From Escherichia phage ECO4: a DNA stretch of 64,000 nucleotides. Under the pieces are notes generated by a model. That model had not been told where the DNA came from. It saw only the letters and a program-made list of their open reading frames with translations, and searched no databases. Positions 26,503 through 59,400 of the stretch are shown here, piece after piece. The translations under genes were made by a program, and so were the position numbers. The first letter of the stretch is position 1; every line of letters begins with the position of its first letter. The DNA lies in sequence record NC_054911.1. One strand, given 5' to 3'.

Positions 26503-26556
26503 TCCTCATGTTATGTCAGTAAGACTACTATAACACAACACGAGGGACTTGTAAAC
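26503..26556 (-). promoter_or_regulatory. early-type promoter/leader cassette, copy 1 of an exact 54-bp repeat
   Basis: Minus strand GTTTACA - 17 nt - TATAGT with TGn, then leader ending in GAGGA RBS; identical to 41827..41880. Confidence 0.6.
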
Positions 26557-28613
26557 TACATTTTGAACTTTTTAGACATTCCGTTGATGTTAACCAAAGA
26601 AGCTAAGATTTGAGAAACTTCGTTTTCCTCTTCTTTTGATTCTTCTACAAGGAATTGATTAAATCCAGCCATTGGACGAACTTCACCAGTTTCCATTAGA
26701 TGGTCGCCATCATATACTGATTCTTCTAATTGTTCAGAAGGAGGAACGATTGTACCTTCGATTAGATACTTGTTATAAGCAGTTTCTTTCATAAAGTAAG
26801 TACTTACTTTATTAATCTTCAGTAAAATTCCACGTGGTAGAATAACTTCAGCTTCTGATGGAAATCCTGACAAATGACCTGGAACGATAACTTTAACTCG
26901 TTCAGCTCCTTTAATTACCATACCCACGCTAGTTTCAGCATCTTCATTAGCATATGTAGAATGACTACCCATATGCATCAAATCTTCTGCATCAACGGAA
27001 CCTTCTCCTTCACCAGAAAATACTGCTCCGGAATCATCTAAGGCCATATAATTTTTACCATACTCACCAAAGATATTTGGTTTAAGTGATGTAGATACGA
27101 AGTTCTTGAAATAGAACATTTTATTTTCAATGTTATGACGCAAAGTTTTAAAAGTAACTTCTTGTCCACGGTAAAGTGTAGTTCCTGGAGGAAGAACTGA
27201 ACCTTTAGCAAACGCAGAATCCATAGTCTCGATGTGCTTAATAGCGCGCTCCATGTATTCTTCACGTGTAGAATCAGGTTTACCTAAAAGGAATGAGTTC
27301 ATTTCAACATACGAATCTGCACAATAATCTTCAATTACATCAGATTCAGCCTGAGTCAATCCTTTTGGAGTTACTTCAGTGCTTGCATATTCATACGCCT
27401 GAGCAGCGGATTCATCAATTAATTTATAAATGCCATTCATGACAAATTGAATAATAGCTGTCTTTTCATCTGGCGTAGCTTTAGAACCTTTAACTAAATC
27501 ATTGACAATTTTCTTAATAACATCAAAGCTATTAGAAATATTAATGTCAGCAAGATCGCTTAAAATTTTATCAGTTTTATAATCAAAAAATTCTTTATTC
27601 TTTAAATATTCTTGAGAACTTTGATATGTTATATCGCTCTGCAACTTGATAGATGGATCACGTAAACGTGCATGGGCTAATGCAATATGATTTCGGAAGC
27701 TTTCTAGTTCATAATCACTAGATTTAAAACGAGAAGCACTCCTCATACCACCGATAGCTCCTTTGCCGAAGTTTGAACCAATCTGAATAACGCCAGAGTT
27801 CATTGGTCCTTCTGCTTTATATACCGGAACTTTAGATTCAAACTCTTGATATTTCTTAGCAGCAAAGCTATCACCCTGAAGTGAAGCATCAACAGTAGAA
27901 TATTGAGCTTGTGCTGCTAATCGACGACTAATTTTAGTTTTCTGAATAACAGCTTGATCCGTACGCTTATCATTTTCTAAAGCAATAGAAGCAGCAACTG
28001 CGACAGCTTTAGGAACAGCATTACCTGTTTTAACGTCTACATAAACATCACCGACTTTCGATTCAACTTTTGTGAATAACTCAGTTGAAATAGGAGGTAC
28101 ACCTGGAATGTCTTCTAAATTGGCATTTTTACGGTAAACCATAATATATGCATATTTCTTATCATAGTCCCAGATTTCCTTTAAAAGAACATATCGACCT
28201 GCTCCTTTAGTACGTACTAAACGGTCAGCAATAACTTGCATTTGACGAGCAGCGCCATTTGTTTTACTTTTTAGTACGCGGAATAGGCATGCATCAATTT
28301 TATACTGTTTCATTGTTTGAAGAGCAGTATCAAAAACCGCATTAATGACACCAATTGGATTTCCACCCAAATTTTTAAGCTTAACTAACGATAATTTCTC
28401 ATTAACACCTATCATTACGATATGCATCATTTTGTCGCCTGGCTTAACGTTTTTATTCGTATCACCGCCAGAGGTGTATGTACAAAATCGAAATCCAGGA
28501 AGAACGCTTTCTTCACCGGCTTGAATAGCAAAAATTTGAGGTATTTTATGCTTAGGATTTAAGTTAACAACCGGCGCCGAAGCGCCGTCAAATAATTCTG
28601 TAATAAGTTCCAT
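26556..28613 (-). CDS. Alt-family mono-ADP-ribosyltransferase, paralog A
   Basis: 685 aa; shared N-terminal region MELITELFD...; R-S-E type motifs (YRGQ, FVSTSL, EAEVILPRG). Confidence 0.85.
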   Translation of the reverse strand: MELITELFDGASAPVVNLNPKHKIPQIFAIQAGEESVLPGFRFCTYTSGGDTNKNVKPGDKMMHIVMIGVNEKLSLVKLKNLGGNPIGVINAVFDTALQTMKQYKIDACLFRVLKSKTNGAARQMQVIADRLVRTKGAGRYVLLKEIWDYDKKYAYIMVYRKNANLEDIPGVPPISTELFTKVESKVGDVYVDVKTGNAVPKAVAVAASIALENDKRTDQAVIQKTKISRRLAAQAQYSTVDASLQGDSFAAKKYQEFESKVPVYKAEGPMNSGVIQIGSNFGKGAIGGMRSASRFKSSDYELESFRNHIALAHARLRDPSIKLQSDITYQSSQEYLKNKEFFDYKTDKILSDLADINISNSFDVIKKIVNDLVKGSKATPDEKTAIIQFVMNGIYKLIDESAAQAYEYASTEVTPKGLTQAESDVIEDYCADSYVEMNSFLLGKPDSTREEYMERAIKHIETMDSAFAKGSVLPPGTTLYRGQEVTFKTLRHNIENKMFYFKNFVSTSLKPNIFGEYGKNYMALDDSGAVFSGEGEGSVDAEDLMHMGSHSTYANEDAETSVGMVIKGAERVKVIVPGHLSGFPSEAEVILPRGILLKINKVSTYFMKETAYNKYLIEGTIVPPSEQLEESVYDGDHLMETGEVRPMAGFNQFLVEESKEEENEVSQILASLVNINGMSKKFKM

Positions 28614-28616
28614 GAT

Positions 28617-30713
28617 TTATCCTTGAACGAACTTGTAAGGCATGTTTGTAATATCTATGCAAGACGCAATAATTCCAAGAGATGATTCTACTTTCTGTTT
28701 AACATTTGATGAAACAAATGATGCAAAGTCAACTCTATCTTCTATTTCAATATCACCTGTCATTGCAACTACTTCACCGGTTTCCATTAAATGGTCTCCG
28801 TCATAGATTACCGATTCGGTGAGCTCTTCCGTGGTCATAACTTCAGCTTGAATGAGTTTTGTATTATTAGATGTTGTTCCGTCATTATTAGAAGCATCAG
28901 TTATTTTATTAACTTTGACCATCAATCCACGCGGTAGAATAACTTCAGCTTCTGTTGCTATTCCGAGACTTCCTGGATATACAACATTAACTTTATGAGC
29001 TCCATCAATTGCCCATCCTATTTGAACTTTAACGTATTCAGGATTTTCTTTATACGCTCTTATTTCGTTTGGATTAATAGTTATTCCTTCTTCATTTTTA
29101 TCAACTGTTAATTCATTGCGAGCTTCTGGTTCTAAAAGACCAATACCAGCATGTGTGATTCCAAAACGTCCAAAAATGATAGGAGTTAAAGAAGTAGATA
29201 CAAAATTTCTGAAGTAGAACACTTTATTTTTAACTAACGCTTCATATATAGGAGCAGTCATACTTTGAGCACGATAAACTGTAATGCCTTCTGGTATACG
29301 GTCACCATTTTCAAAAGCTGAATCTAAGTTATTTATAGCAGATTCAATTTCTTTTTCACTCATTACATCATATCGTTCTGGATTGTAACGACCTAAAAGA
29401 AGATTATTGATGTCAGTATATCCTGAACCGCAATATTCTCTAATGCCACGCTTTTGTGATGGAGTATATTTAGAACCATCGCGGGCAATAGTAATATCAA
29501 TCATTGGACCAGCACCAATTCCAGAAAAACTGTAAATCATTCGTTTGAGGAATTTAGTTTTTGCTGCGTTCCAGGAATTTTTAGTTATTTCTTCCCAGAC
29601 TTCATCTGGTTGTCCTTTACGATTTTTATTATGATTAGCAAGCCATTTATCTTTATAATCTTCAAAGAATTGATTTACAGCTGCTGCGTATTTCTCTAAA
29701 CATTTTATTGAAGTAGTTGGTTCATTTTTAATTGCATTAAAAATTACTTCTTTAATTTTTTCTGAAACTTCACCGACTTGACTCATTGGAAAGAATTTAT
29801 AATCATAGTGAAGTTCATCTGCCGTTCCTTCAGCAATAATTTTTGCTGCCTTTGTTTTAGAAGCTAATGAATTAATTCCAATTTTCATTTCTTCTGCTTC
29901 GGGAATTAAAGGTGCAGTAGCTGGTTTATTAAAATTAGCTGCTGTAGATTCATACTTCTGGAATAATTCACTTTCAAATCTAGAAGATTCCAATGACTGA
30001 CTTTGTGCAATTGCTCTACGGGAAATTTTAACTTTAACGATTACGGCTTGGTCAGAACGTTTATCATTTTCTTGTGCAATAGATGCAGCAATTGCCTCAT
30101 TTTTGGTTACTTGAGCTCCAGTATCTTTATTGATATAAACATCACCGACCTTCGATTCAACTTTAGTAAAAAGCTCGGTGCTAATTTCTGGAACTCCTGG
30201 AATGTCTTCTAGTGATACATTTTTACGATGTATAAGAATATATGCATACTTTTTATCGTAATCCCAGAGTTCCTTAAGAAGGACGTATCTGCCACCTGAA
30301 CGACTGCGGATGAGTCTATCAGCAATAAGTTGAATTTGTCGAGCTTGACCGGCGGTTTTAGACTTAAGAATACGAAGCATGCAGGCATCAATTTTATATT
30401 GACGCATTGTTTGCATTGCAACAGTAAAAACTGAATTGATATAATTAATCGGGCTTGGACCAAGACCTTTTAATTTAGCAATTGAACCTTTAGCAGTTAA
30501 TGTAAAAGGAACAATGTGCATCATTTTATCGCCCATCTTTAAATCACGATTAGTATCACCTCCAGATGTATAGGTACATAAACGAAAGCCTGGTTGTTCA
30601 ATTGCATCATCAACATGAACTGAAAAAATTTGTGGTATTTTCTTCTTTGGATTTAAGTTTGTAATCGGAAGAGTAGTATCTTCGTCAAATAATTCTGTAA
30701 TGAGTTCCATCAT
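28617..30713 (-). CDS. alt: Alt-family mono-ADP-ribosyltransferase, paralog B
   Basis: 698 aa; same N-terminal and catalytic motifs (YRAQ, FVSTSL, EAEVILPRG), diverged middle; which copy is the alt ortholog is not resolved. Confidence 0.85.
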   Translation of the reverse strand: MMELITELFDEDTTLPITNLNPKKKIPQIFSVHVDDAIEQPGFRLCTYTSGGDTNRDLKMGDKMMHIVPFTLTAKGSIAKLKGLGPSPINYINSVFTVAMQTMRQYKIDACMLRILKSKTAGQARQIQLIADRLIRSRSGGRYVLLKELWDYDKKYAYILIHRKNVSLEDIPGVPEISTELFTKVESKVGDVYINKDTGAQVTKNEAIAASIAQENDKRSDQAVIVKVKISRRAIAQSQSLESSRFESELFQKYESTAANFNKPATAPLIPEAEEMKIGINSLASKTKAAKIIAEGTADELHYDYKFFPMSQVGEVSEKIKEVIFNAIKNEPTTSIKCLEKYAAAVNQFFEDYKDKWLANHNKNRKGQPDEVWEEITKNSWNAAKTKFLKRMIYSFSGIGAGPMIDITIARDGSKYTPSQKRGIREYCGSGYTDINNLLLGRYNPERYDVMSEKEIESAINNLDSAFENGDRIPEGITVYRAQSMTAPIYEALVKNKVFYFRNFVSTSLTPIIFGRFGITHAGIGLLEPEARNELTVDKNEEGITINPNEIRAYKENPEYVKVQIGWAIDGAHKVNVVYPGSLGIATEAEVILPRGLMVKVNKITDASNNDGTTSNNTKLIQAEVMTTEELTESVIYDGDHLMETGEVVAMTGDIEIEDRVDFASFVSSNVKQKVESSLGIIASCIDITNMPYKFVQG

Positions 30714-34648: not shown

Positions 34649-34688
34649 AGTATTTTCCTCAGTAAGGGGCCGAAGCCCCTGTTTTATT

Positions 34689-35080: not shown

Positions 35081-35120
35081 GGTACAGGTATATAATATCA
35101 TATCCTGTACCAAAGTAAAC
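35081..35120 (-). promoter_or_regulatory. early-type promoter with overlapping stem-loop
   Basis: Minus strand GTTTACT - 17 nt - TATTAT with TGn; inverted repeat GGTACAGG/CCTGTACC brackets the -10. Confidence 0.55.
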
Positions 35121-35122
35121 AA

Positions 35123-35455
35123 TTATTTTACTACTTTCCAGTGCTTCATGTCAAGTTTACCAACTTTTTTCATCTTCTCAATCAAACGTTCGGCACGTTG
35201 GCGAGCTGTAACATAATACCATTCGCCTAATTCATTTTGTTCAATTTTTCCAACGATTACTGTATTCAATTCATAAATCCAACCAGTAAAGAAATTATGA
35301 ACTTGAATTGTAAAGGTGAAATCTGTTCCCATACCTTCTGTTGTTTCTACTTCAATAATATCACCTTCAACTGCCATTAAGAACCACATAGTTTCATCAT
35401 ATTTACCATTGAAGCATTTAGTTTTAACTGCAGCGTTCAGATTAATCGTTTTCAT
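35123..35455 (-). CDS. hypothetical protein
   Basis: 110-aa ORF with AAGGAGA RBS. Confidence 0.55.
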   Translation of the reverse strand: MKTINLNAAVKTKCFNGKYDETMWFLMAVEGDIIEVETTEGMGTDFTFTIQVHNFFTGWIYELNTVIVGKIEQNELGEWYYVTARQRAERLIEKMKKVGKLDMKHWKVVK

Positions 35456-35469
35456 TTTATTCTCCTTTG

Positions 35470-35512
35470 TTTGTGTAAGATAATACTATCACAAAGGAAC
35501 CATACTGTAAAC
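35470..35512 (-). promoter_or_regulatory. early-type promoter with overlapping stem-loop
   Basis: Minus strand GTTTACA - 17 nt - TAGTAT with TGn; inverted repeat TTTGTG/CACAAA. Confidence 0.5.
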
Positions 35513-35542
35513 AACTTTGTGCAATCTTTGGAAAATAAAAAA

Positions 35543-35562
35543 AGGACTCCCGAAGGAGTCCT
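35543..35562 (-). terminator. rho-independent terminator
   Basis: 8-bp stem AGGACTCC/GGAGTCCT with CGAA loop, followed on minus strand by TTTTTTTTATTTTC. Confidence 0.8.
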
Positions 35563-35566
35563 CAAC

Positions 35567-38282: not shown

Positions 38283-38518
38283 AGTACGCCATACACCCTT
38301 TGTGCTTCAACTAATCCATCAAAATCTAATTTAAGATGCGATATTTGATCGCCATCACCTGGATTCACAATTACTAATACTGAACGAGGAGTTTCAGTAA
38401 TAACACGAACCGATGTTTCAGGAAATCGTTCAGAAACCTTATTTACCAATTCCTGCGCAAATAGCTTAACTTTTTCTTGGAATTCTTTAACAGTAATCGG
38501 TTTTTCACTTAGCAGCAT
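38279..38518 (-). CDS. hypothetical protein (cd.2 position)
   Basis: 79-aa ORF with GAGGAAAA RBS downstream of promoter 38538..38577. Confidence 0.5.
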   Translation of the reverse strand: MLLSEKPITVKEFQEKVKLFAQELVNKVSERFPETSVRVITETPRSVLVIVNPGDGDQISHLKLDFDGLVEAQRVYGVL

Positions 38519-38537
38519 TTTGTTTTCCTCATTTGTT

Positions 38538-38577
38538 TGGTAGAGCTATAATATCACAACTCTACCGTAAAGTAAAC
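38538..38577 (-). promoter_or_regulatory. early-type promoter with overlapping stem-loop
   Basis: Minus strand GTTTACT - 17 nt - TATTAT with TGn; inverted repeat GGTAGAG/CTCTACC brackets the -10. Confidence 0.55.
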
Positions 38578-38579
38578 TA

Positions 38580-38885
38580 TTAAATTGCTTTGAATTCTGA
38601 TGTCTGTGATTCAAAACGAATGTCGCCTTTGATAACTAGCTCAGCATCAAGACCGAATACAACAATGATATGCGCGGAACCTGGATACAACGTGATGGCA
38701 ACAGAATCCACCTGGTCTGGAAGCAAAGTGTTCAATACATGAGTCACTTGAGCATGAATTCGAAGCTCGGCTGCGTTATCAAGCTTTTCAAACATATTAT
38801 TAGCGATAATTTGACTAAACACTACTTCTACAATTTTAGAATAAGTCGGAAACATATTTACCTCACATAATTTTCTTCGAGCCAA
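38580..38885 (-). CDS. hypothetical protein
   Basis: 101-aa ORF; start may be the internal ATG at 38855. Confidence 0.45.
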   Translation of the reverse strand: MARRKLCEVNMFPTYSKIVEVVFSQIIANNMFEKLDNAAELRIHAQVTHVLNTLLPDQVDSVAITLYPGSAHIIVVFGLDAELVIKGDIRFESQTSEFKAI

Positions 38886-39058: not shown

Positions 39059-40448
<1,390 letters not shown>

Positions 40449-41826: not shown

Positions 41827-41880
41827 TCCTCATGTTATGTCAGTAAGACTACTATAACACAACACGAGGGACTTGTAAAC
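41827..41880 (-). promoter_or_regulatory. early-type promoter/leader cassette, copy 2 of the exact 54-bp repeat
   Basis: Identical to 26503..26556; lies between rnlA stop and alc start. Confidence 0.6.
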
Positions 41881-48193: not shown

Positions 48194-48505
48194 TTACACC
48201 GCCATCTTTCCTTTAATTGGCGGGTGAGATACATAGTTGTTAAGAACAAAATTATGCGGCTTTGCGAATTGACTCAACCAAAATACCTGTGATTCTGTAC
48301 CCCATTCATCGAATTCATCTGGAAATTTTAATTGCAATTCGCATAAATCCATAGGTTCACGACGCAAAATTTCTTTACATTGTTCTACGTGATTCATATA
48401 GATATGAGTATTACCACCAGAAAATATCAAATCTCCCGGAATAAGATTACACATCTTAGCTACAATATGAACTAACGTAGCATATGATGCAATATTAAAT
48501 GGAAG
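48194..48505 (-). CDS. td: thymidylate synthase, exon 2
   Basis: Encodes LPFNIASYATLVHIV...; preceded by intron 3' end ...ACATAATG. Confidence 0.9.
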   Translation of the reverse strand, partial: LPFNIASYATLVHIVAKMCNLIPGDLIFSGGNTHIYMNHVEQCKEILRREPMDLCELQLKFPDEFDEWGTESQVFWLSQFAKPHNFVLNNYVSHPPIKGKMAV

Positions 48506-49521
48506 CATTATGTTCAGATAAGGTCGTTAATCTTACCCCGGAATTATATCCAGCTGCATGTCACCATGCAGATCAGACTATATCTCCAACTTGTTAAAGC
48601 AAGTTGTCTATCGTTTCGAGTCACTTGACCCTACTCCCCAAAGGGATAGTCGTTAGGCATTTATGTAGAACCAATTCCATTTATCAGATTTTACACGATA
48701 AGTAACTAATCCAGACGAAATTTTAAAATGTCTAGCTGCATCTGCTGCACAATCAAAAATAACCCCATCACATGAAATCTTTTTAATATTACTAGGCTTT
48801 TTACCTTTCATCTTTTCTGATATTTTAGATTTAGTTATGTCTGAATGCTTATGATTAAAGAATGAATTATTTTCACCTGAACGATTTCTGCATTTACTAC
48901 AAGTATAAGCAGAAGTTTGTATGCGAACACCGCACTTACAAAACTTATGGGTTTCTGGATTCCAACGCCCGTTTTTACTTCCGGGTTTACTGTAAAGAGC
49001 TTTCCGACCATCAGGTCCAAGTTTAAGCATCTTAGCTTTAACAGTTTCAGAACGTTTCTTAATAATTTCTTCTTTTAATGGATGCGTAGAACATGTATCA
49101 CCAAACGTTGCATCAGCAATATTGTATCCATTAATTTTAGAATTAAGCTCTTTAATCCAAAAATTTTCTCGTTCAATAATCAAATCTTTCTCATATGGAA
49201 TTTCTTCCAAAATAGAACATTCAAACACATTACCATGTTTGTTAAAAGACCTCTGAAGCTTTATAGAAGAATGGCATCCTTTTTCTAAATCTTTAAAATG
49301 CCTCTTCCATCTCTTTTCAAAATCTTTAGCACTTCCTACATATACTTTATTGTTTAAAGTATTTTTAATCTGATAAATTCCGCTTTTCATAAATACCTCT
49401 TTAAATATAGAAGTATTTATTAAAGGGCAGTCCTACAATTTAGCACGGGATTGTCTACTAGAGAGGTTCCCCGTTTAGATAGATTACAAGTATAAGTCAC
49501 CTTATACTCAGGCCTCAATTA
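48506..49521 (-). mobile_element. group I self-splicing intron in td (1016 nt)
   Basis: 5' junction TTCTTGGGT|TAATTGAGGCCTGAGTATAAGGTGACTTATAC and 3' junction ACATAATG|CTT recognised as the T4 td intron; carries I-TevI. Confidence 0.9.
48653..49390 (-). CDS. I-TevI intron-encoded GIY-YIG homing endonuclease
   Basis: 245 aa; N-terminal GIYQIKNTLNNKVYVGSA... GIY-YIG domain. Confidence 0.9.
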   Translation of the reverse strand: MKSGIYQIKNTLNNKVYVGSAKDFEKRWKRHFKDLEKGCHSSIKLQRSFNKHGNVFECSILEEIPYEKDLIIERENFWIKELNSKINGYNIADATFGDTCSTHPLKEEIIKKRSETVKAKMLKLGPDGRKALYSKPGSKNGRWNPETHKFCKCGVRIQTSAYTCSKCRNRSGENNSFFNHKHSDITKSKISEKMKGKKPSNIKKISCDGVIFDCAADAARHFKISSGLVTYRVKSDKWNWFYINA

Positions 49522-50070
49522 ACCCAAGAAAACATCTACTGATCGTTGATACCACTGCAAATCCAAATAGCCATTACGCACATTAAACTGATAGAACATA
49601 TGACAGGGCGGTAATGCCATTTGATTGATTTCAGCTGGATTCCATGCAGAAACAATTTGACGCCTATCATTTGGCAGTTTTTTAATACGATCAATAACTT
49701 CTATAATTTGATCTACACCGCCAAAATCACGCCACTGTTTTCCATAAATTGGACCAAGTTCACCGCTATGGTATCCTAAATCTTTTGCTTGATTTTCGTA
49801 ATTTTCATCCCAGACTGTTTTGCCTTGAATTAATGAATCGTGCTGAATTAATCGTAAATCATTGACATTTGTGCTTCCTGATAAAAACCAAAGCAGCTCA
49901 GCAATGCAAGCTTTCCAGGCGAGCTTCTTAGTTGTTACCGCAGGAAAACCTTTAGTTAAATCCCAGCGTAATTTAGTACCAAACAAAGCAATTGTTCCTG
50001 TGCCTGTTCGGTCATCGGTTTCATAGCCATTTTCAAAAATGTCTTTAATTAAATCTTGGTATTGTTTCAT
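49522..50070 (-). CDS. td: thymidylate synthase, exon 1
   Basis: 183 codons ending ...QRSVDVFLG; exon 1 plus exon 2 give 286 aa. Confidence 0.9.
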
Positions 50071-50115
50071 TTAGTACCTTATATAAATTATAATACATTT
50101 TATGAAGCTAAATAA

Positions 50116-50463
50116 TCAATACGGTTTAGCATCAAATTTTCTCTCAATTTCAGGCGTGAAATATAATTCTTTACCGCGTTTGGAAAAGCGACCAATAATA
50201 TGATAATTATTCTCATCAAACGTGATATTACCAATATCCATAGCTTTCAACCAAATATCGATATTTCTATCCAGCTTTATGTCAAAATTCCAATACGGAG
50301 AACTATTACCGAAAATACTACAAGCGGATTCAGTGAAACAACTGCTATAAATCTTGTCTTTAGGAACTACTAATTGATAGACACCTTTAATAAACTGAGG
50401 ACCCTGCCACTTTGGCTGTTTCTCATCTTTTTCTAATAGAATAGGGTAATAATTAAAATTCAT
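50116..50463 (-). CDS. hypothetical protein inserted between frd and td
   Basis: 115-aa ORF, ATG 20 nt after frd stop; no motif recognised. Confidence 0.55.
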   Translation of the reverse strand: MNFNYYPILLEKDEKQPKWQGPQFIKGVYQLVVPKDKIYSSCFTESACSIFGNSSPYWNFDIKLDRNIDIWLKAMDIGNITFDENNYHIIGRFSKRGKELYFTPEIERKFDAKPY

Positions 50464-50482
50464 ATTTCCGCCGCGCGTTATT

Positions 50483-51305
<823 letters not shown>

Positions 51306-51321
<16 letters not shown>

Positions 51322-51665
51322 TGAAAGGGGCCAGAAGCAAATCCGCTATCTTTAATCATTTTAACTAAAGTTACCATTCCTCTGTTAACTGCTTGCGAGA
51401 TTTCATCAAAAACTTCATCACTATCACCATAAAGATCGCTAAAAAGTTCTAACACGTTCTTCTGAACTTTTAATTTACAGCCAACAAATTCGCCTACAGT
51501 AAATTCGTTTCCGCCAACTCCAGCGTAAAACGTAATTACACCAGTTAATGGTCTTTCACTAGAACATAGGTCGTGTGATAAATTAATATAAGCCGTCCCG
51601 GGTGCAGTTTTAAGTTGGCAACGAATACTTACTCGAGCAATTCCAGCTACACGAATGTCAGACAT
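51306..51665 (-). CDS. hypothetical protein (frd.2 position)
   Basis: 119-aa ORF. Confidence 0.5.
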
Positions 51666-51928: not shown

Positions 51929-51997
51929 TTAGCAAGCTTTAATCAAAAGATATAAACAGACCAACATAACTGCTGCCATAATATAAGGTGCGAACAT
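51929..51997 (-). CDS. candidate 22-aa hydrophobic micropeptide (not in ORF track)
   Basis: ATG at 51997 preceded by GGAGAAAAG; translation MFAPYIMAAVMLVCLYLLIKAC; just downstream of promoter 52028..52057. Confidence 0.3.
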   Translation of the reverse strand: MFAPYIMAAVMLVCLYLLIKAC

Positions 51998-52027
51998 TTT
52001 CTTTTCTCCATTAGTTTTGATAGGGTA

Positions 52028-52057
52028 ATAGTATCACACTACTACCCCGTTGTAAAC
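52028..52057 (-). promoter_or_regulatory. early-type promoter
   Basis: Minus strand GTTTACA - 17 nt - TACTAT with TGn. Confidence 0.5.
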
Positions 52058-52059
52058 AA

Positions 52060-52320
52060 TTATTTTTGAATTTTATCGAGCCACTTACCAAGCTTAATCA
52101 TTTCTTTAGTAGCCTTTTCCATACTTCTGAACTTAACCAATAGAGGATAGGTATCGACACCCATAACTAAACTGGTTACAAGACTGTGTTCACCCACAAG
52201 CCATAACGAATACGTTTGAATATCGAGTCCGTAATTTCTGTCTTTATGGACCCGTACACCCATCACTTCAAATTTCTCACTAGCTTTTTCTACCGCATCC
52301 AGGAAATCATCTTTAGTCAT
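52060..52320 (-). CDS. hypothetical protein
   Basis: 86 aa from ATG 52320; ORF track start 52362 lies inside the upstream gene. Confidence 0.45.
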   Translation of the reverse strand: MTKDDFLDAVEKASEKFEVMGVRVHKDRNYGLDIQTYSLWLVGEHSLVTSLVMGVDTYPLLVKFRSMEKATKEMIKLGKWLDKIQK

Positions 52321-52321
52321 A

Positions 52322-52708
52322 TTAGGCCTTAAAAGTTTTTCGCAAAAGTTCAATGATTTCATCTACATTGTTTTCGTCAACAATGCAGTGAATTTTTGTT
52401 ACGCCAGAAACTATACCTTCATTAGCGGATTGAGGCTTTTCTAAAGTTACCTCAGTAAAGTATTTGAATTCTTCAGGGTAAATCTCAAAATACGTCTCAA
52501 GTGGGCCACCCGCCATGTATTCAGTGCCGTCTTCCATAGTTACACGTACCACACAGTCACCAGCACAATCATCACTTTCCATTTCATCTACAACAAAACT
52601 AGGTCCGTGCTTCTCTATTAAATTTAGCATCATTACATTGCAACGGCACTCGTTAGCAAAGTCATTTTTAAATAAAGGGTTAATGATATAAGTTTTTCCA
52701 ACTTCCAC
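52322..52708 (-). CDS. hypothetical protein
   Basis: 128-aa ORF. Confidence 0.5.
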   Translation of the reverse strand: MEVGKTYIINPLFKNDFANECRCNVMMLNLIEKHGPSFVVDEMESDDCAGDCVVRVTMEDGTEYMAGGPLETYFEIYPEEFKYFTEVTLEKPQSANEGIVSGVTKIHCIVDENNVDEIIELLRKTFKA

Positions 52709-53026: not shown

Positions 53027-53058
53027 GTATAGTACCATAAAGCCTTATGTTTGTAAAC
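53027..53058 (-). promoter_or_regulatory. early-type promoter downstream of gene 32 terminator
   Basis: Minus strand GTTTACA - 17 nt - TACTAT with TGn. Confidence 0.5.
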
Positions 53059-53077: not shown

Positions 53078-53109
53078 TGAAATAAAAAAAGGGGACCTCT
53101 AGGGTCCCC
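53078..53109 (-). terminator. rho-independent terminator after gene 32
   Basis: GGGGACC-TCTAG-GGTCCCC hairpin followed on minus strand by TTTTTTTATTTC. Confidence 0.8.
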
Positions 53110-56323: not shown

Positions 56324-56359
56324 GATTTCTATTATATACCATCCGAATCTTAAAGTAAA
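56324..56359 (-). promoter_or_regulatory. early-type promoter for rnh
   Basis: Minus strand GTTTACT - 17 nt - TATAAT with TGn. Confidence 0.5.
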
Positions 56360-56363
56360 CAAG

Positions 56364-56405: not shown

Positions 56406-59400
56406 ATGGCCGAGATTAAAAGAAAGTTCAGAGCAGAAGATGGTCTGGACGCAGGTGGTGATAAAATAATCAACGTAGCTTTAGCTGATCGTGCCGTAGG
56501 AACTGACGGTGTTAACGTTGATTACTTAATTCAAGAAAACACAGTTCAACAATATGATCCAACTCGTGGATATTTAAAAGATTTTGTAATCATTTATGAT
56601 AACCGCTTTTGGGCTGCTATAAATGATATTCCAAAACCAGCAGGAGCTTTTAATAGCGTACGATGGAGAGCGTTACGCACTGATGCAAACTGGACAACTG
56701 TTTCGTCAGGACCTTATCAATTAAAATCAGGCGAATCGATTTCAGTTAACACCGCAGCGGGTAATGACATTACATTTACTTTGCCATCTTCTCCAATTGA
56801 TGGTGATACTATCGTTCTCCAAGATATTGGAGGAAAACCTGGAGTTAACCAGGTTTTAATTACAGCTCCGGTACAAAGCATTGTAAACTTTAGAGGTCAA
56901 CAAGTACGCTCAGTACTAATGACTCATCCAAAATCACAGATAGTTTTAATTTTTAGTAATCGTCTGTGGCAAATGTATGTTGCTGATTATAGCAGAGAAG
57001 CGGCAGTTGTAACACCAGCAAGTCTTTATCAAGCGCAATCAAACGATTTTATCGTGCGTAGATTTACTTCTGCTTCAGCAATTAATATTAAACTTCCTAG
57101 ATTTGCTAATCATGGGGATATTATTAATTTTGTTGATTTAGATAAATTAAATCCACTTTATCACACAATTGTTACCACATATGATGAAACAACTTCAGTA
57201 CAAGAAGTTGGAACTCATTCCATTGAAGGCCGTACATCTATTGATGGTTTCTTGATGTTTGATGATAATGAGAAATTGTGGAGATTGTTTGACGGGGATA
57301 GTAAAGCACGTTTACGCATTATAACGACTAATTCTAATATTCGTCCAAATGAAGAAGTCATGGTATTTGGCGCGAATAATGGAACAACCCAAACAATTGA
57401 ACTTCAGCTTCCAACTGATATTTCTATCGGTGATACTGTTAAGATTTCCATGAATTATATGAGAAAAGGACAAACAGTTAAAATCAAAGCTGCCGGTGAA
57501 GATAAAATTGCTTCTTCAGTTCAATTGCTGCAATTTCCAAAACGTTCAGAATACCCACCTGAAACTAAATGGGTGACTGTTCAAGAATTAGTTTTTAATG
57601 GCGAAACCAATTATGTTCCAGTTTTACAGCTTGCTTATATCGAAGATTCCGATGGAAAATATTGGGTTGTACAGCAAAATGTTCCAACTGTAGAAAGAGT
57701 AGACTCTTTAAATAATTCTACTAGAGCAAGATTAGGCATAATTGCTTTAGCTACACAGGCTCAAGCTAATGCTGATCTAGAAAATTCTCCACAAAAAGAA
57801 CTGGCAATTACTCCAGAAACGTTAGCTAATCGTACTGCTACAGAAACTCGTAGAGGTATTGCAAGAATAGCAACTACTGCTCAAGTTAACCAGGATACTA
57901 CATTCTCTTTTGCTGATGATATTATCATCACTCCTAAAAAGCTGAATGAAAGAACAGCTACTGAAACTCGCAGAGGTGTTGCCGAAATTGCTACGCAGCA
58001 AGAAACTAATGCAGGAACCGATGATACGACAATCATCACTCCTAAAAAGCTTCAAGCTCGCCAAGGTTCTGAATCATTATCTGGTATTGTAACTTTTGTA
58101 TCTACTGCAGGTGCTACTCCGGCTTCTAGCCGTGAATTAAATGGTACGAATGTTTATAATAAAAACACTAATAATTTAGTTGTTTCGCCAAAAGCTTTGG
58201 ACCAGTATAAAGCTACGCCTACTCAACAGGGTGCAGTAATTTTAGCAGTTGAAAGTGAAGTAATTGCTGGTCAAAGTCAAGAAGGATGGGCAAATGCTGT
58301 TGTAACGCCAGAAACGTTACATAAAAAGACATCAACTGATGGAAGAATTGGTTTAATTGAAATTGCTACGCAAAGTGAAGTTAATACAGGAACTGATTAT
58401 ACTCGTGCAGTCACTCCTAAAACTTTAAATGACCGTAGAGCAACTGAAAGTTTAAGTGGTATAGCTGAAATTGCTACACAAGTTGAATTCGACGCGGGCG
58501 TCGACGATACTCGTATTTCTACACCATTAAAAATTAAAACTAGATTTAATAGTACTGATCGTACTTCTGTTGTTGCTCTATCTGGATTAGTTGAATCAGG
58601 AACTCTCTGGGACCATTATACCCTTAATATTCTTGAAGCAAACGAGACACAACGTGGTACACTTCGTGTAGCTACACAAGTTGAAGCTGCTGCTGGAAAA
58701 TTAGATAATGTTTTAATAACTCCTAAAAAGCTTTTAGGTACTAAATCTACTGAAGCACAAGAAGGTGTTATTAAAGTTGCAACACAAACCGAAACTGTTG
58801 CTGGAACATCGGCAAATACTGCTGTATCTCCAAAAAATTTAAAATGGATTGTGCAGAGTGAACCTACTTGGGCAGCTACTACTGCAGTAAGAGGCTTTGT
58901 TAAAACTTCATCTGGTTCAATTACATTCGTTGGTAATGATACAGCCGGTTCTACCCAGGACTTAGAGCTATACGAGAAAAATAGCTATGCAGTATCACCA
59001 TACGAATTAAACCGTGTATTAGCAAATTATTTGCCATTAAAAGCAAAAGCTGCAGATAGTAATTTATTGGATGGTCTAGATTCATCTCAGTTCATTCGTA
59101 GGGATATTGCGCAGACGGTTAATGGTTCACTAACCTTAACTCAACAAACGAATCTGAGTGCCCCTCTTGTATCATCTAGTACTGCTACGTTCGGTGGATC
59201 AGTTTCAGCAAATAGTACATTAACTATTTCTAATACTGGAACAGCAACTCGATTGATTTTTGAGAAAGGACCTCAAACTGGAACAAACCCAGCCCAAACG
59301 ATGACGGTTAGAGTGTGGGGAAATCAATTTAGTGGGGAATTAGATACAACACGTTCTACCGTATTTGAAGTTAGTGATGAAACATCTAGTCATTTTTATT

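Follow-up and report, generated by a model that had tools for sequence, protein, structure and literature searches.

The region around positions 35,081 to 35,512 of the genome of Escherichia phage ECO4 (NC_054911.1) raises the question of what its two minus-strand sites are, each of which joins a GTTTAC(A/T) box to a TAnnAT-type hexamer and an inverted repeat, and of what the repeats might do for the genes next to them. The window considered here is the whole stretch of 64,000 nucleotides in which they lie, and the initial annotation had placed them, together with four similar sites and a repeated 54-bp cassette, in one family of early-type promoters, several with an inverted repeat around the -10. 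The sites are very probably T4-type early promoters (Pe), predicted in this phage, and the stems at them an instance of the arrangement already named PeSL, likely acting on read-through RNA. A 5-kb sample around the sites shows 99.1% identity to Escherichia phage wV7, and T4-like phage records matched by it number 808; to judge from sequence, the window is that of a wV7-like Tequatrovirus. It aligns to T4 at about 92-97% over most of 23.5-62.3 kb with few insertions or deletions, the exception being a diverged alt duplication at about 26.6-29.9 kb. The sites belong to the T4 early/middle gene block, which takes up 26-56.4 kb of the minus strand (alt.-3, alt, 30, 30.1-30.9, rIII, 31, cd, pseT, alc, rnlA, denA, nrdB, nrdA, td, frd, 32, 59, 33, dsbA, and rnh) and is followed by late gene 34 with a divergent start at 56406.

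The gene content of this block differs from that of T4 in several places. As in wV7/RB32, two tandem full-length alt paralogues are present at 26556-28613 and 28617-30713 (685 and 698 aa), with repeat families that are 70-94% identical at a spacing of 2094-2097 nt; T4 has a single alt gene and the remnants alt.-1 and alt.-2. Compared with T4, the window has additional small ORFs after pseT and in the td-frd and frd-frd.1 intervals, as well as a diverged frd.2 region; these differences lie at 40150-40446, 50073-50478, 51080-51608, and 52070-52693 on the window side and at 138457-139058 and 147918-148542 on the T4 side. The T4 nrdB intron (I-TevIII) and segG are absent from the window. The td region (48194-50070) contains an I-TevI-sized ORF of 245 aa at 48653-49390, which implies a td group I intron, and a search of 26-57 kb with Rfam at gathering threshold gave no match anywhere, the td region included, and no family at the promoter sites. 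Genes 30.7 and 30.6 are separated by a 40-nt gap that contains a G/C-rich hairpin (AGGGGCCGAAGCCCCT, plus strand) at 34665-34680, with a T-run following on the plus strand, opposite to the genes; the hairpin could be a stop for antisense transcription or a sense-strand stem without a U-run.

The motif is far more frequent in the window than expected by chance. The strict pattern GTTTACW-N14-TGN-TANNAT has four matches, every one of them on the minus strand (35483-35512, 38548-38577, 52028-52057, and 53029-53058), where 0.03 would be expected, and the relaxed pattern GTTTACW-N{16,17}-TANNAT returns exactly the six sites noted earlier against 0.35 expected, a count of six being reached in 0 of 100 shuffles; the six early-type sites can thus be regarded as real. 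GTTTAC occurs 37 times on both strands, and the full consensus, defined as GTTTAC[AT] followed by 16 or 17 nt and a TAnnnT hexamer with at least 4/6 matches to TATAAT, is found at eight of these, namely the six sites plus both 54-bp cassette copies (Table 1). All eight are intergenic minus-strand sites located from 26.5 to 56.4 kb; intergenic DNA makes up about 5% of that stretch by a tally of the gaps between ORFs, so that the motif does not recur at similar density in coding DNA. A Shine-Dalgarno sequence and an ATG follow each of the eight, in agreement with the ribosome-binding sites reported before. The 20 nt upstream of the sites contain 55-90% A+T, with at least 75% at six of the eight, compared with a window average of about 64%. 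The -10 hexamers among the eight sites are TATTAT, TAGTAT, TACTAT, TATAAT, and TATAGT. A spacer of 17 nt and a TGn next to the -10 had been ascribed to all six sites, and each of these traits holds for five of them: the spacer is 16 nt at 30.7 and 17 nt at the other seven of the eight sites, and the extended -10 TGn is present at seven of eight, the exception being rnh, where GTA precedes TATAAT. At this last site the TATAAT hexamer goes with the 17-nt spacer, and the only hexamer adjoined by TGG is an alternative TATATA with a 15-nt spacer.

Table 1. Predicted early promoters and neighbouring intrinsic terminators of the window; hairpins are RNA fold predictions, and T4 positions are orthologous to the window position in parentheses.
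Feature	Position	Strand	-35	-10 region	Predicted +1	Inverted repeat or hairpin	T4 position
alt.-3 cassette, 54-bp copy 1	26503..26556	minus	GTTTACA 26556-26550	TGT-TATAGT, -10 at 26532-26527	26520	long hairpin around -10; MFE -23 kcal/mol, z -4.96	123093 (26556)
30.7 early promoter	35081..35120	minus	GTTTACT 35120-35114	TGA-TATTAT, -10 at 35097-35092	35085	GGTACAGG 35111-35104 / CCTGTACC 35088-35081, 8 bp; z -5.22	129918 (35120), identical
30.8 early promoter	35463..35512	minus	GTTTACA 35512-35506	TGA-TAGTAT, -10 at 35488-35483	35476	spacer TCCTTTGT 35498-35491 / ACAAAGGA 35470-35463, 8 bp, 3' arm over Shine-Dalgarno; MFE -12.1 kcal/mol, z -2.11	130310 (35512)
Intrinsic terminator, about 30 nt upstream of 30.8 promoter	35542..35563	minus				GAGGACTCCTTCGGGAGTCCTT then T-run; rho-independent terminator annotated at the matching place in the wV7 record	
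cd.2 early promoter	38539..38577	minus	GTTTACT 38577-38571	TGA-TATTAT, -10 at 38553-38548	38541	GGTAGAG 38566-38560 / CTCTACC 38545-38539, 7 bp; z -5.33	133331 (38577)
alc cassette, 54-bp copy 2 (100% identical to copy 1)	41827..41880	minus			41844	MFE -24.4 kcal/mol, z -5.27	136336 (41880)
Promoter of 22-codon ORF and frd.1	52023..52057	minus	GTTTACA 52057-52051	TGA-TACTAT, -10 at 52033-52028	52021	GGGTAGTAG.../...TACTATTACCC, takes in -10; z -2.88; GGGTA/TACCC (5 bp) present	146143 (52057)
frd.3 early promoter	53029..53058	minus	GTTTACA	TGG-TACTAT	53022	two small hairpins, neither bracketing -10; z -2.5	146875 (53058)
Gene 32 intrinsic terminator, about 30 nt upstream of frd.3 promoter	53091..53109	minus				GGGGACCCTAGAGGTCCCC then T-run; annotated in wV7	T4 equivalent exists
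rnh early promoter, divergent gap with gene 34	56324..56360	minus	GTTTACT 56360-56354	TATAAT 56336-56331	56324	no significant hairpin; z +1.45	150763 (56360)

The alignment shows near-identical T4 orthologues for all eight sites. At the orthologue of the cd.2 site, the GenBank entry for T4 speaks of "the early promoter Pe133295 between cd.2 and cd.3"; this is the only one mentioned there, in a sequence-correction note, and the sites carry no promoter features in the records of T4 or wV7. A scan of T4 that covered 148.9 of 168.9 kb, leaving aside bases 100001-119999, which belong to the block of late structural genes, gave 36 consensus sites that were kept as early promoters, all of them on the minus strand and intergenic; this strict list omits at least two published early promoters, Pe35.3 (hit 35698), which has TTTTAC, and Pe40.4 (hit 41261), which was taken as inside a gene. 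Four T4 early-promoter starts have been reported at 27,044; 35,662; 41,225; and 150,727 (PMC6024815), and each equals a GTTTAC-type hit of the scan minus 36 nt, which shows the start of transcription to lie about 36 nt beyond the G of the GTTTAC box. The last of these starts belongs to Pe148.6, for which primer extension located the 5' end and showed activity as early as 1 min into infection (PMC6024815), and the rnh site is its orthologue because 150,727 is the T4 hit 150763 minus 36. The early-promoter interpretation is therefore supported by the published consensus, the T4 orthologues, Pe133295, and Pe148.6.

Beside the frd.1 promoter, a small ORF of 22 codons is located at 51929-51997 on the minus strand, between the promoter and frd.1. 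It encodes a hydrophobic product (MFAPYIMAAVMLVCLYLLIKAC), has a good Shine-Dalgarno sequence, and recurs unchanged in T4; the records of T4 and wV7 both lack an annotation for it. Two close IMG/VR relatives (L026 and L027) do not have the ORF, and in them frd.1 comes directly after the promoter.

A strong stem-loop is predicted at five of the eight promoters (alt.-3, 30.7, cd.2, alc, and frd.1), with its 5' arm in the spacer. By z-score the fold is strongest at the first four of these, with about -5, and moderate at frd.1, as it is at 30.8. The repeats first reported at 30.7 (GGTACAGG/CCTGTACC), cd.2 (GGTAGAG/CTCTACC), and frd.1 (GGGTA/TACCC) are present as described; the TTTGTG/CACAAA pair at 35470-35512 exists as well, while the longer pairing at that site is the 8-bp one of TCCTTTGT with ACAAAGGA. 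Within the window alone such repeats are only modestly significant because, among random 60-nt windows drawn from this sequence, 10.8% contain a perfect inverted repeat of 7 bp or longer and 3.7% contain one of 8 bp or longer. The T4 genome allows a stronger test. For each consensus early promoter, and for chimeric controls in which the 5' half of one T4 promoter was joined to the 3' half of a different one, the length of the longest perfect stem between the spacer (5' arm) and the sequence downstream (3' arm) was determined. Stems of 7 bp or more are found in 15 of the 36 T4 promoters compared with 4.0% of the chimeras (permutation p < 5e-5), and this genome-wide comparison is decisive for an excess of hairpins over chance. 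Two classes of stem exceed their own controls in T4: one in which the 3' arm directly follows the -10 and spans +1, and another in which the 3' arm covers the Shine-Dalgarno sequence, as in T4 regB, denV, and nrdC.9 and at 30.8 here. When all 36 T4 promoters are compared in a fixed register, 49.3% of cells are paired versus 45.5% in shuffles, a signal that is modest because the stems occupy different registers, with a dyad axis at about -12/-11 common to six T4 promoters.

The hairpins are also distributed unevenly with respect to terminators. In T4, a strong core hairpin is found at 0 of 7 promoters with an upstream intrinsic terminator and at 15 of 29 without one (Fisher p ~0.03), an exclusivity that involves small numbers, with p from 0.03 to 0.08 according to the threshold. 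The same pattern is seen in the window, where the 30.8 and frd.3 promoters follow terminators, rnh, opposite a divergent gene, lacks a hairpin, and the strong hairpins belong to the five promoters placed directly after an upstream stop codon.

The pairing is conserved where the sequence of the arms has changed. The loci compared from IMG/VR, mostly close relatives, were 14 by gp30.7, five by Cd.2, and four by Frd.1, and the wider comparison of orthologues included RB69 and eight phage records. At 30.7, the core is nearly invariant in the 14 IMG/VR relatives while both flanks diverge, and one variant among them turns a G-C pair into G.U. At the frd.1 promoter, a hairpin over the -10 is found in six genera with differing arm sequences: Tequatrovirus (GGGTAGTAG in T4 and this window), Mosigvirus (ATAGGGCTA / TAGCCCTAT), Gaprivervirus (ATGGGGCTAT / ATGGTCCCAT), Karamvirus (AGGGCTATGGT), Winklervirus (GGTGTAGAGG / CTTCTACACC), and Jiaodavirus (GGAGCTATGC). 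The arm sequence in close IMG/VR relatives is AGGCTATGGTA. T4 and RB69 differ by a compensatory insertion (AGGGTA/TACCCT versus AGGGCTA/TAGCCCT), and the T4 paralogues show two compensatory changes, GACAAGACTA/TAGTCTTGTC versus GACAAGATTA/TAATCTTGTC and TAGGGT/ACCCTA versus TAGGCT/AGCCTA. Mismatches inside the stems are nearly always G.T and hardly ever A.C (12 versus 1 in the T4 set, 5 versus 0 among the frd.1 orthologues), which favours folding of the sense strand as RNA, an argument weakened by the G+T-rich promoter consensus (TGn, TAnnAT), which partly forces the excess. In Pseudotevenvirus and Slopekvirus (Cronobacter phage leB and Klebsiella phage KP5), an RB49/phi1-type promoter lies upstream of the frd.1 homologue; in leB its hexamers are TTGCAA / TATATT, and its stem (GCCCTTGCAACCGCCAGGGGC) is G/C-rich and overlaps the -35, which is the original PeSL form at the same locus.

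Other readings of the sites and their repeats were considered. Some T4 genes in the same stretch also have middle promoters, such as PmdsbA (PMC6024815), and generic sigma-70 look-alikes are many, which would suit a reading of the sites as MotA-dependent middle promoters or as chance matches. This is scarcely credible, as GTTTAC(A/T) occupies the -35 of every site with no MotA box centred at -30, the absence for which MotA-dependent middle promoters were rejected. Moreover, a generic sigma-70 scan yields 67 matches against 77.7 expected, that is, no enrichment and nothing to single out the sites, while the specific early consensus is enriched 17- to 130-fold, and the rnh orthologue Pe148.6, working at 1 min, has no recognisable middle-promoter sequence (PMC6024815). 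The repeats could instead be DNA operators or cruciform targets of a phage factor that shuts off the early promoters 2-3 min after infection, a process whose mechanism has been described as not understood, and the position of the repeats as dyads centred on the -10, with the shared axis in six T4 promoters, would agree with such a role. It is nevertheless very unlikely: the arms differ between promoters and between orthologues while the pairing is kept, which fits poorly with a sequence-specific binding protein and was the ground for setting that candidate aside; the stem register slides relative to the -10; the strand-specific bias to G.T mismatches points to a single strand and not to duplex DNA; and the repeats are found in only about 40% of early promoters, yet all of these are shut off.

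The repeats might also have no function at all, being scars of recombination, passengers of the cassettes, or chance palindromes in AT-rich DNA. The modest enrichment within the window and the likeness of promoter cassettes that have demonstrably been duplicated speak for this, and the chimeric-control test together with the retention of the hairpin in six genera with altered arms, the compensatory T4/RB69 insertion included, speaks against it, so that a lack of function is considered improbable.

If the sites are early promoters with PeSL-type stems, unmodified E. coli sigma-70 RNA polymerase would use them right after infection through an A/T-rich UP region, the GTTTAC(A/T) -35, a spacer of 16-17 nt usually ending in TGn, and the TAnnAT -10, and would thereby drive the early genes alt.-3, 30.7, 30.8, cd.2, alc, frd.1, frd.3, and rnh. 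The predicted start lies inside the 3' arm at 30.7 and cd.2 and just after it at frd.1, and in both copies of the cassette +1 lies between an upstream 5' arm and a downstream 3' arm. With transcription beginning about 36 nt from the G, the RNA made from the promoter itself would lack the 5' arm, and only RNA reading through from upstream would be able to fold. The stem would accordingly act on upstream transcripts, where the hairpin would most likely serve as an attenuator or define and protect the 3' end of the upstream message, substituting for the job that intrinsic terminators do ahead of the 30.8 and frd.3 promoters. The stems bracketing the -10 are not followed by a U-run; they were hence rejected as canonical intrinsic terminators, and termination by them is putative. 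At 30.8, the spacer is complementary to the Shine-Dalgarno sequence of the gene itself and would silence translation of the read-through RNA only. A wider proposal, tentative and on balance doubtful, is that the stems constitute a conserved, covarying device of the sense-strand RNA that tells read-through from local RNA. Its first class, with a -10 hairpin in place of an intrinsic terminator, would act as an insulator or 3' cap, and its second, the anti-Shine-Dalgarno class (30.8 here; regB, denV, and nrdC.9 in T4), would limit translation to RNA from the gene's own promoter.

The near-identical cores may, in addition, provide short patches of homology for recombination between gene cassettes. 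The initial annotation placed the structured promoters at the edges of the small-ORF clusters, and two of about seven breaks in homology between the window and T4 (26575 and 52070) are indeed 13-19 nt upstream of a -35, while the others are away from promoters. For patches of this kind, a role published for PeSLs, the support in this phage consists of these two breakpoints and the identical 54-bp copies; the likeness of the cd.2 and frd.1 cassettes and the varying presence of the 22-codon ORF beside the frd.1 promoter among relatives are consistent with it. The 54-bp copies are 100% identical in this phage and differ by 1 nt in T4 (TACTAACAT versus TACTGACAT), and their identity points to gene conversion across the 15 kb that separate them. 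Between the cd.2 (38518-38590) and frd.1 (51995-52070) cassettes, identity is about 75% across 65-70 nt and takes in the 5' UTR as far as the ATG; promoter and leader were apparently duplicated together, and the registers of the two stems differ.

The initial observation is correct and its interpretation supported, and both are already known: what it missed is that the promoters belong to a textbook class and that the combination of promoter and stem-loop already has the name PeSL. As a discovery the finding carries little weight, since T4 early promoters are among the best-characterised promoters of bacterial viruses and stem-loops paired with them have been published as PeSLs. What is mildly new is quantitative only, i.e., the over-representation of the stems, their covariation, the exclusivity with terminators, and the class in which the spacer pairs with the Shine-Dalgarno sequence. 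The eight promoters and their predicted starts could be added to the annotation of the genome, and a short follow-up by T4 specialists on the over-represented, covarying -10 stems and on the spacer/Shine-Dalgarno pairing class may be worthwhile.

Among known systems, the closest is that of the T4 early promoters, described as "uber UP/-35/TGn/-10" (Hinton 2010, PMC2988021). The sites share with them the consensus, the strand, and the position relative to early genes, with near-identical sequences, and there is no difference of substance except that the phage here is wV7-like and some neighbour genes differ. PeSLs (Arbiol 2010, PMC2839356; Comeau 2014, PMC4122927) likewise combine an early promoter with a stem-loop in an intergenic position, have at their 3' end the Shine-Dalgarno sequence and start codon of the next gene, and are repeated in copies across the genome, some at indel boundaries. 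With respect to the stem-loop that marks a PeSL, a hairpin spans the -10 at five sites of the window (z from -2.9 to -5.3), an intrinsic terminator lies upstream of two others, and rnh has neither. In RB49 and phi1, the stem-loops are most often between -35 and -10 or overlap the -10, and their polyG/polyC stems flank perfect TTGACA/TATAAT hexamers, whereas the stems here are AT-richer and variable. At the IP loci of T-even phages, elements based on T4 early promoters have AT-rich stems of variable size (Arbiol 2010, PMC2839356). PeSLs were later extended to the PST/T4 pair, where the stems are just upstream of the promoter and not around the -10 (Comeau 2014, PMC4122927), a layout that fits 30.8 and frd.3 here, while five sites instead have the stem around the -10.

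Termination or attenuation by PeSLs and the formation of mini-circles were shown with a lacZ reporter and PCR for phi1/RB49 only, and the terminator assay concerned a G/C-rich stem of phage phi1, not the AT-rich T-even type; a role in recombination and a role in upstream transcripts were both proposed by the PeSL authors, and the action on upstream RNA suggested here agrees with the second of these. The geometry of the 30.8 site is that of the T4 e, soc, 49, and I-TevI hairpins, in which the promoter lies inside the hairpin, so that RNA initiated upstream hides the Shine-Dalgarno sequence and RNA initiated at the promoter does not (Uzan and Miller 2010, PMC3014915). Those hairpins involve late promoters and were tested experimentally, whereas 30.8 has an early promoter with a terminator just upstream, and its effect on translation is a predicted one.
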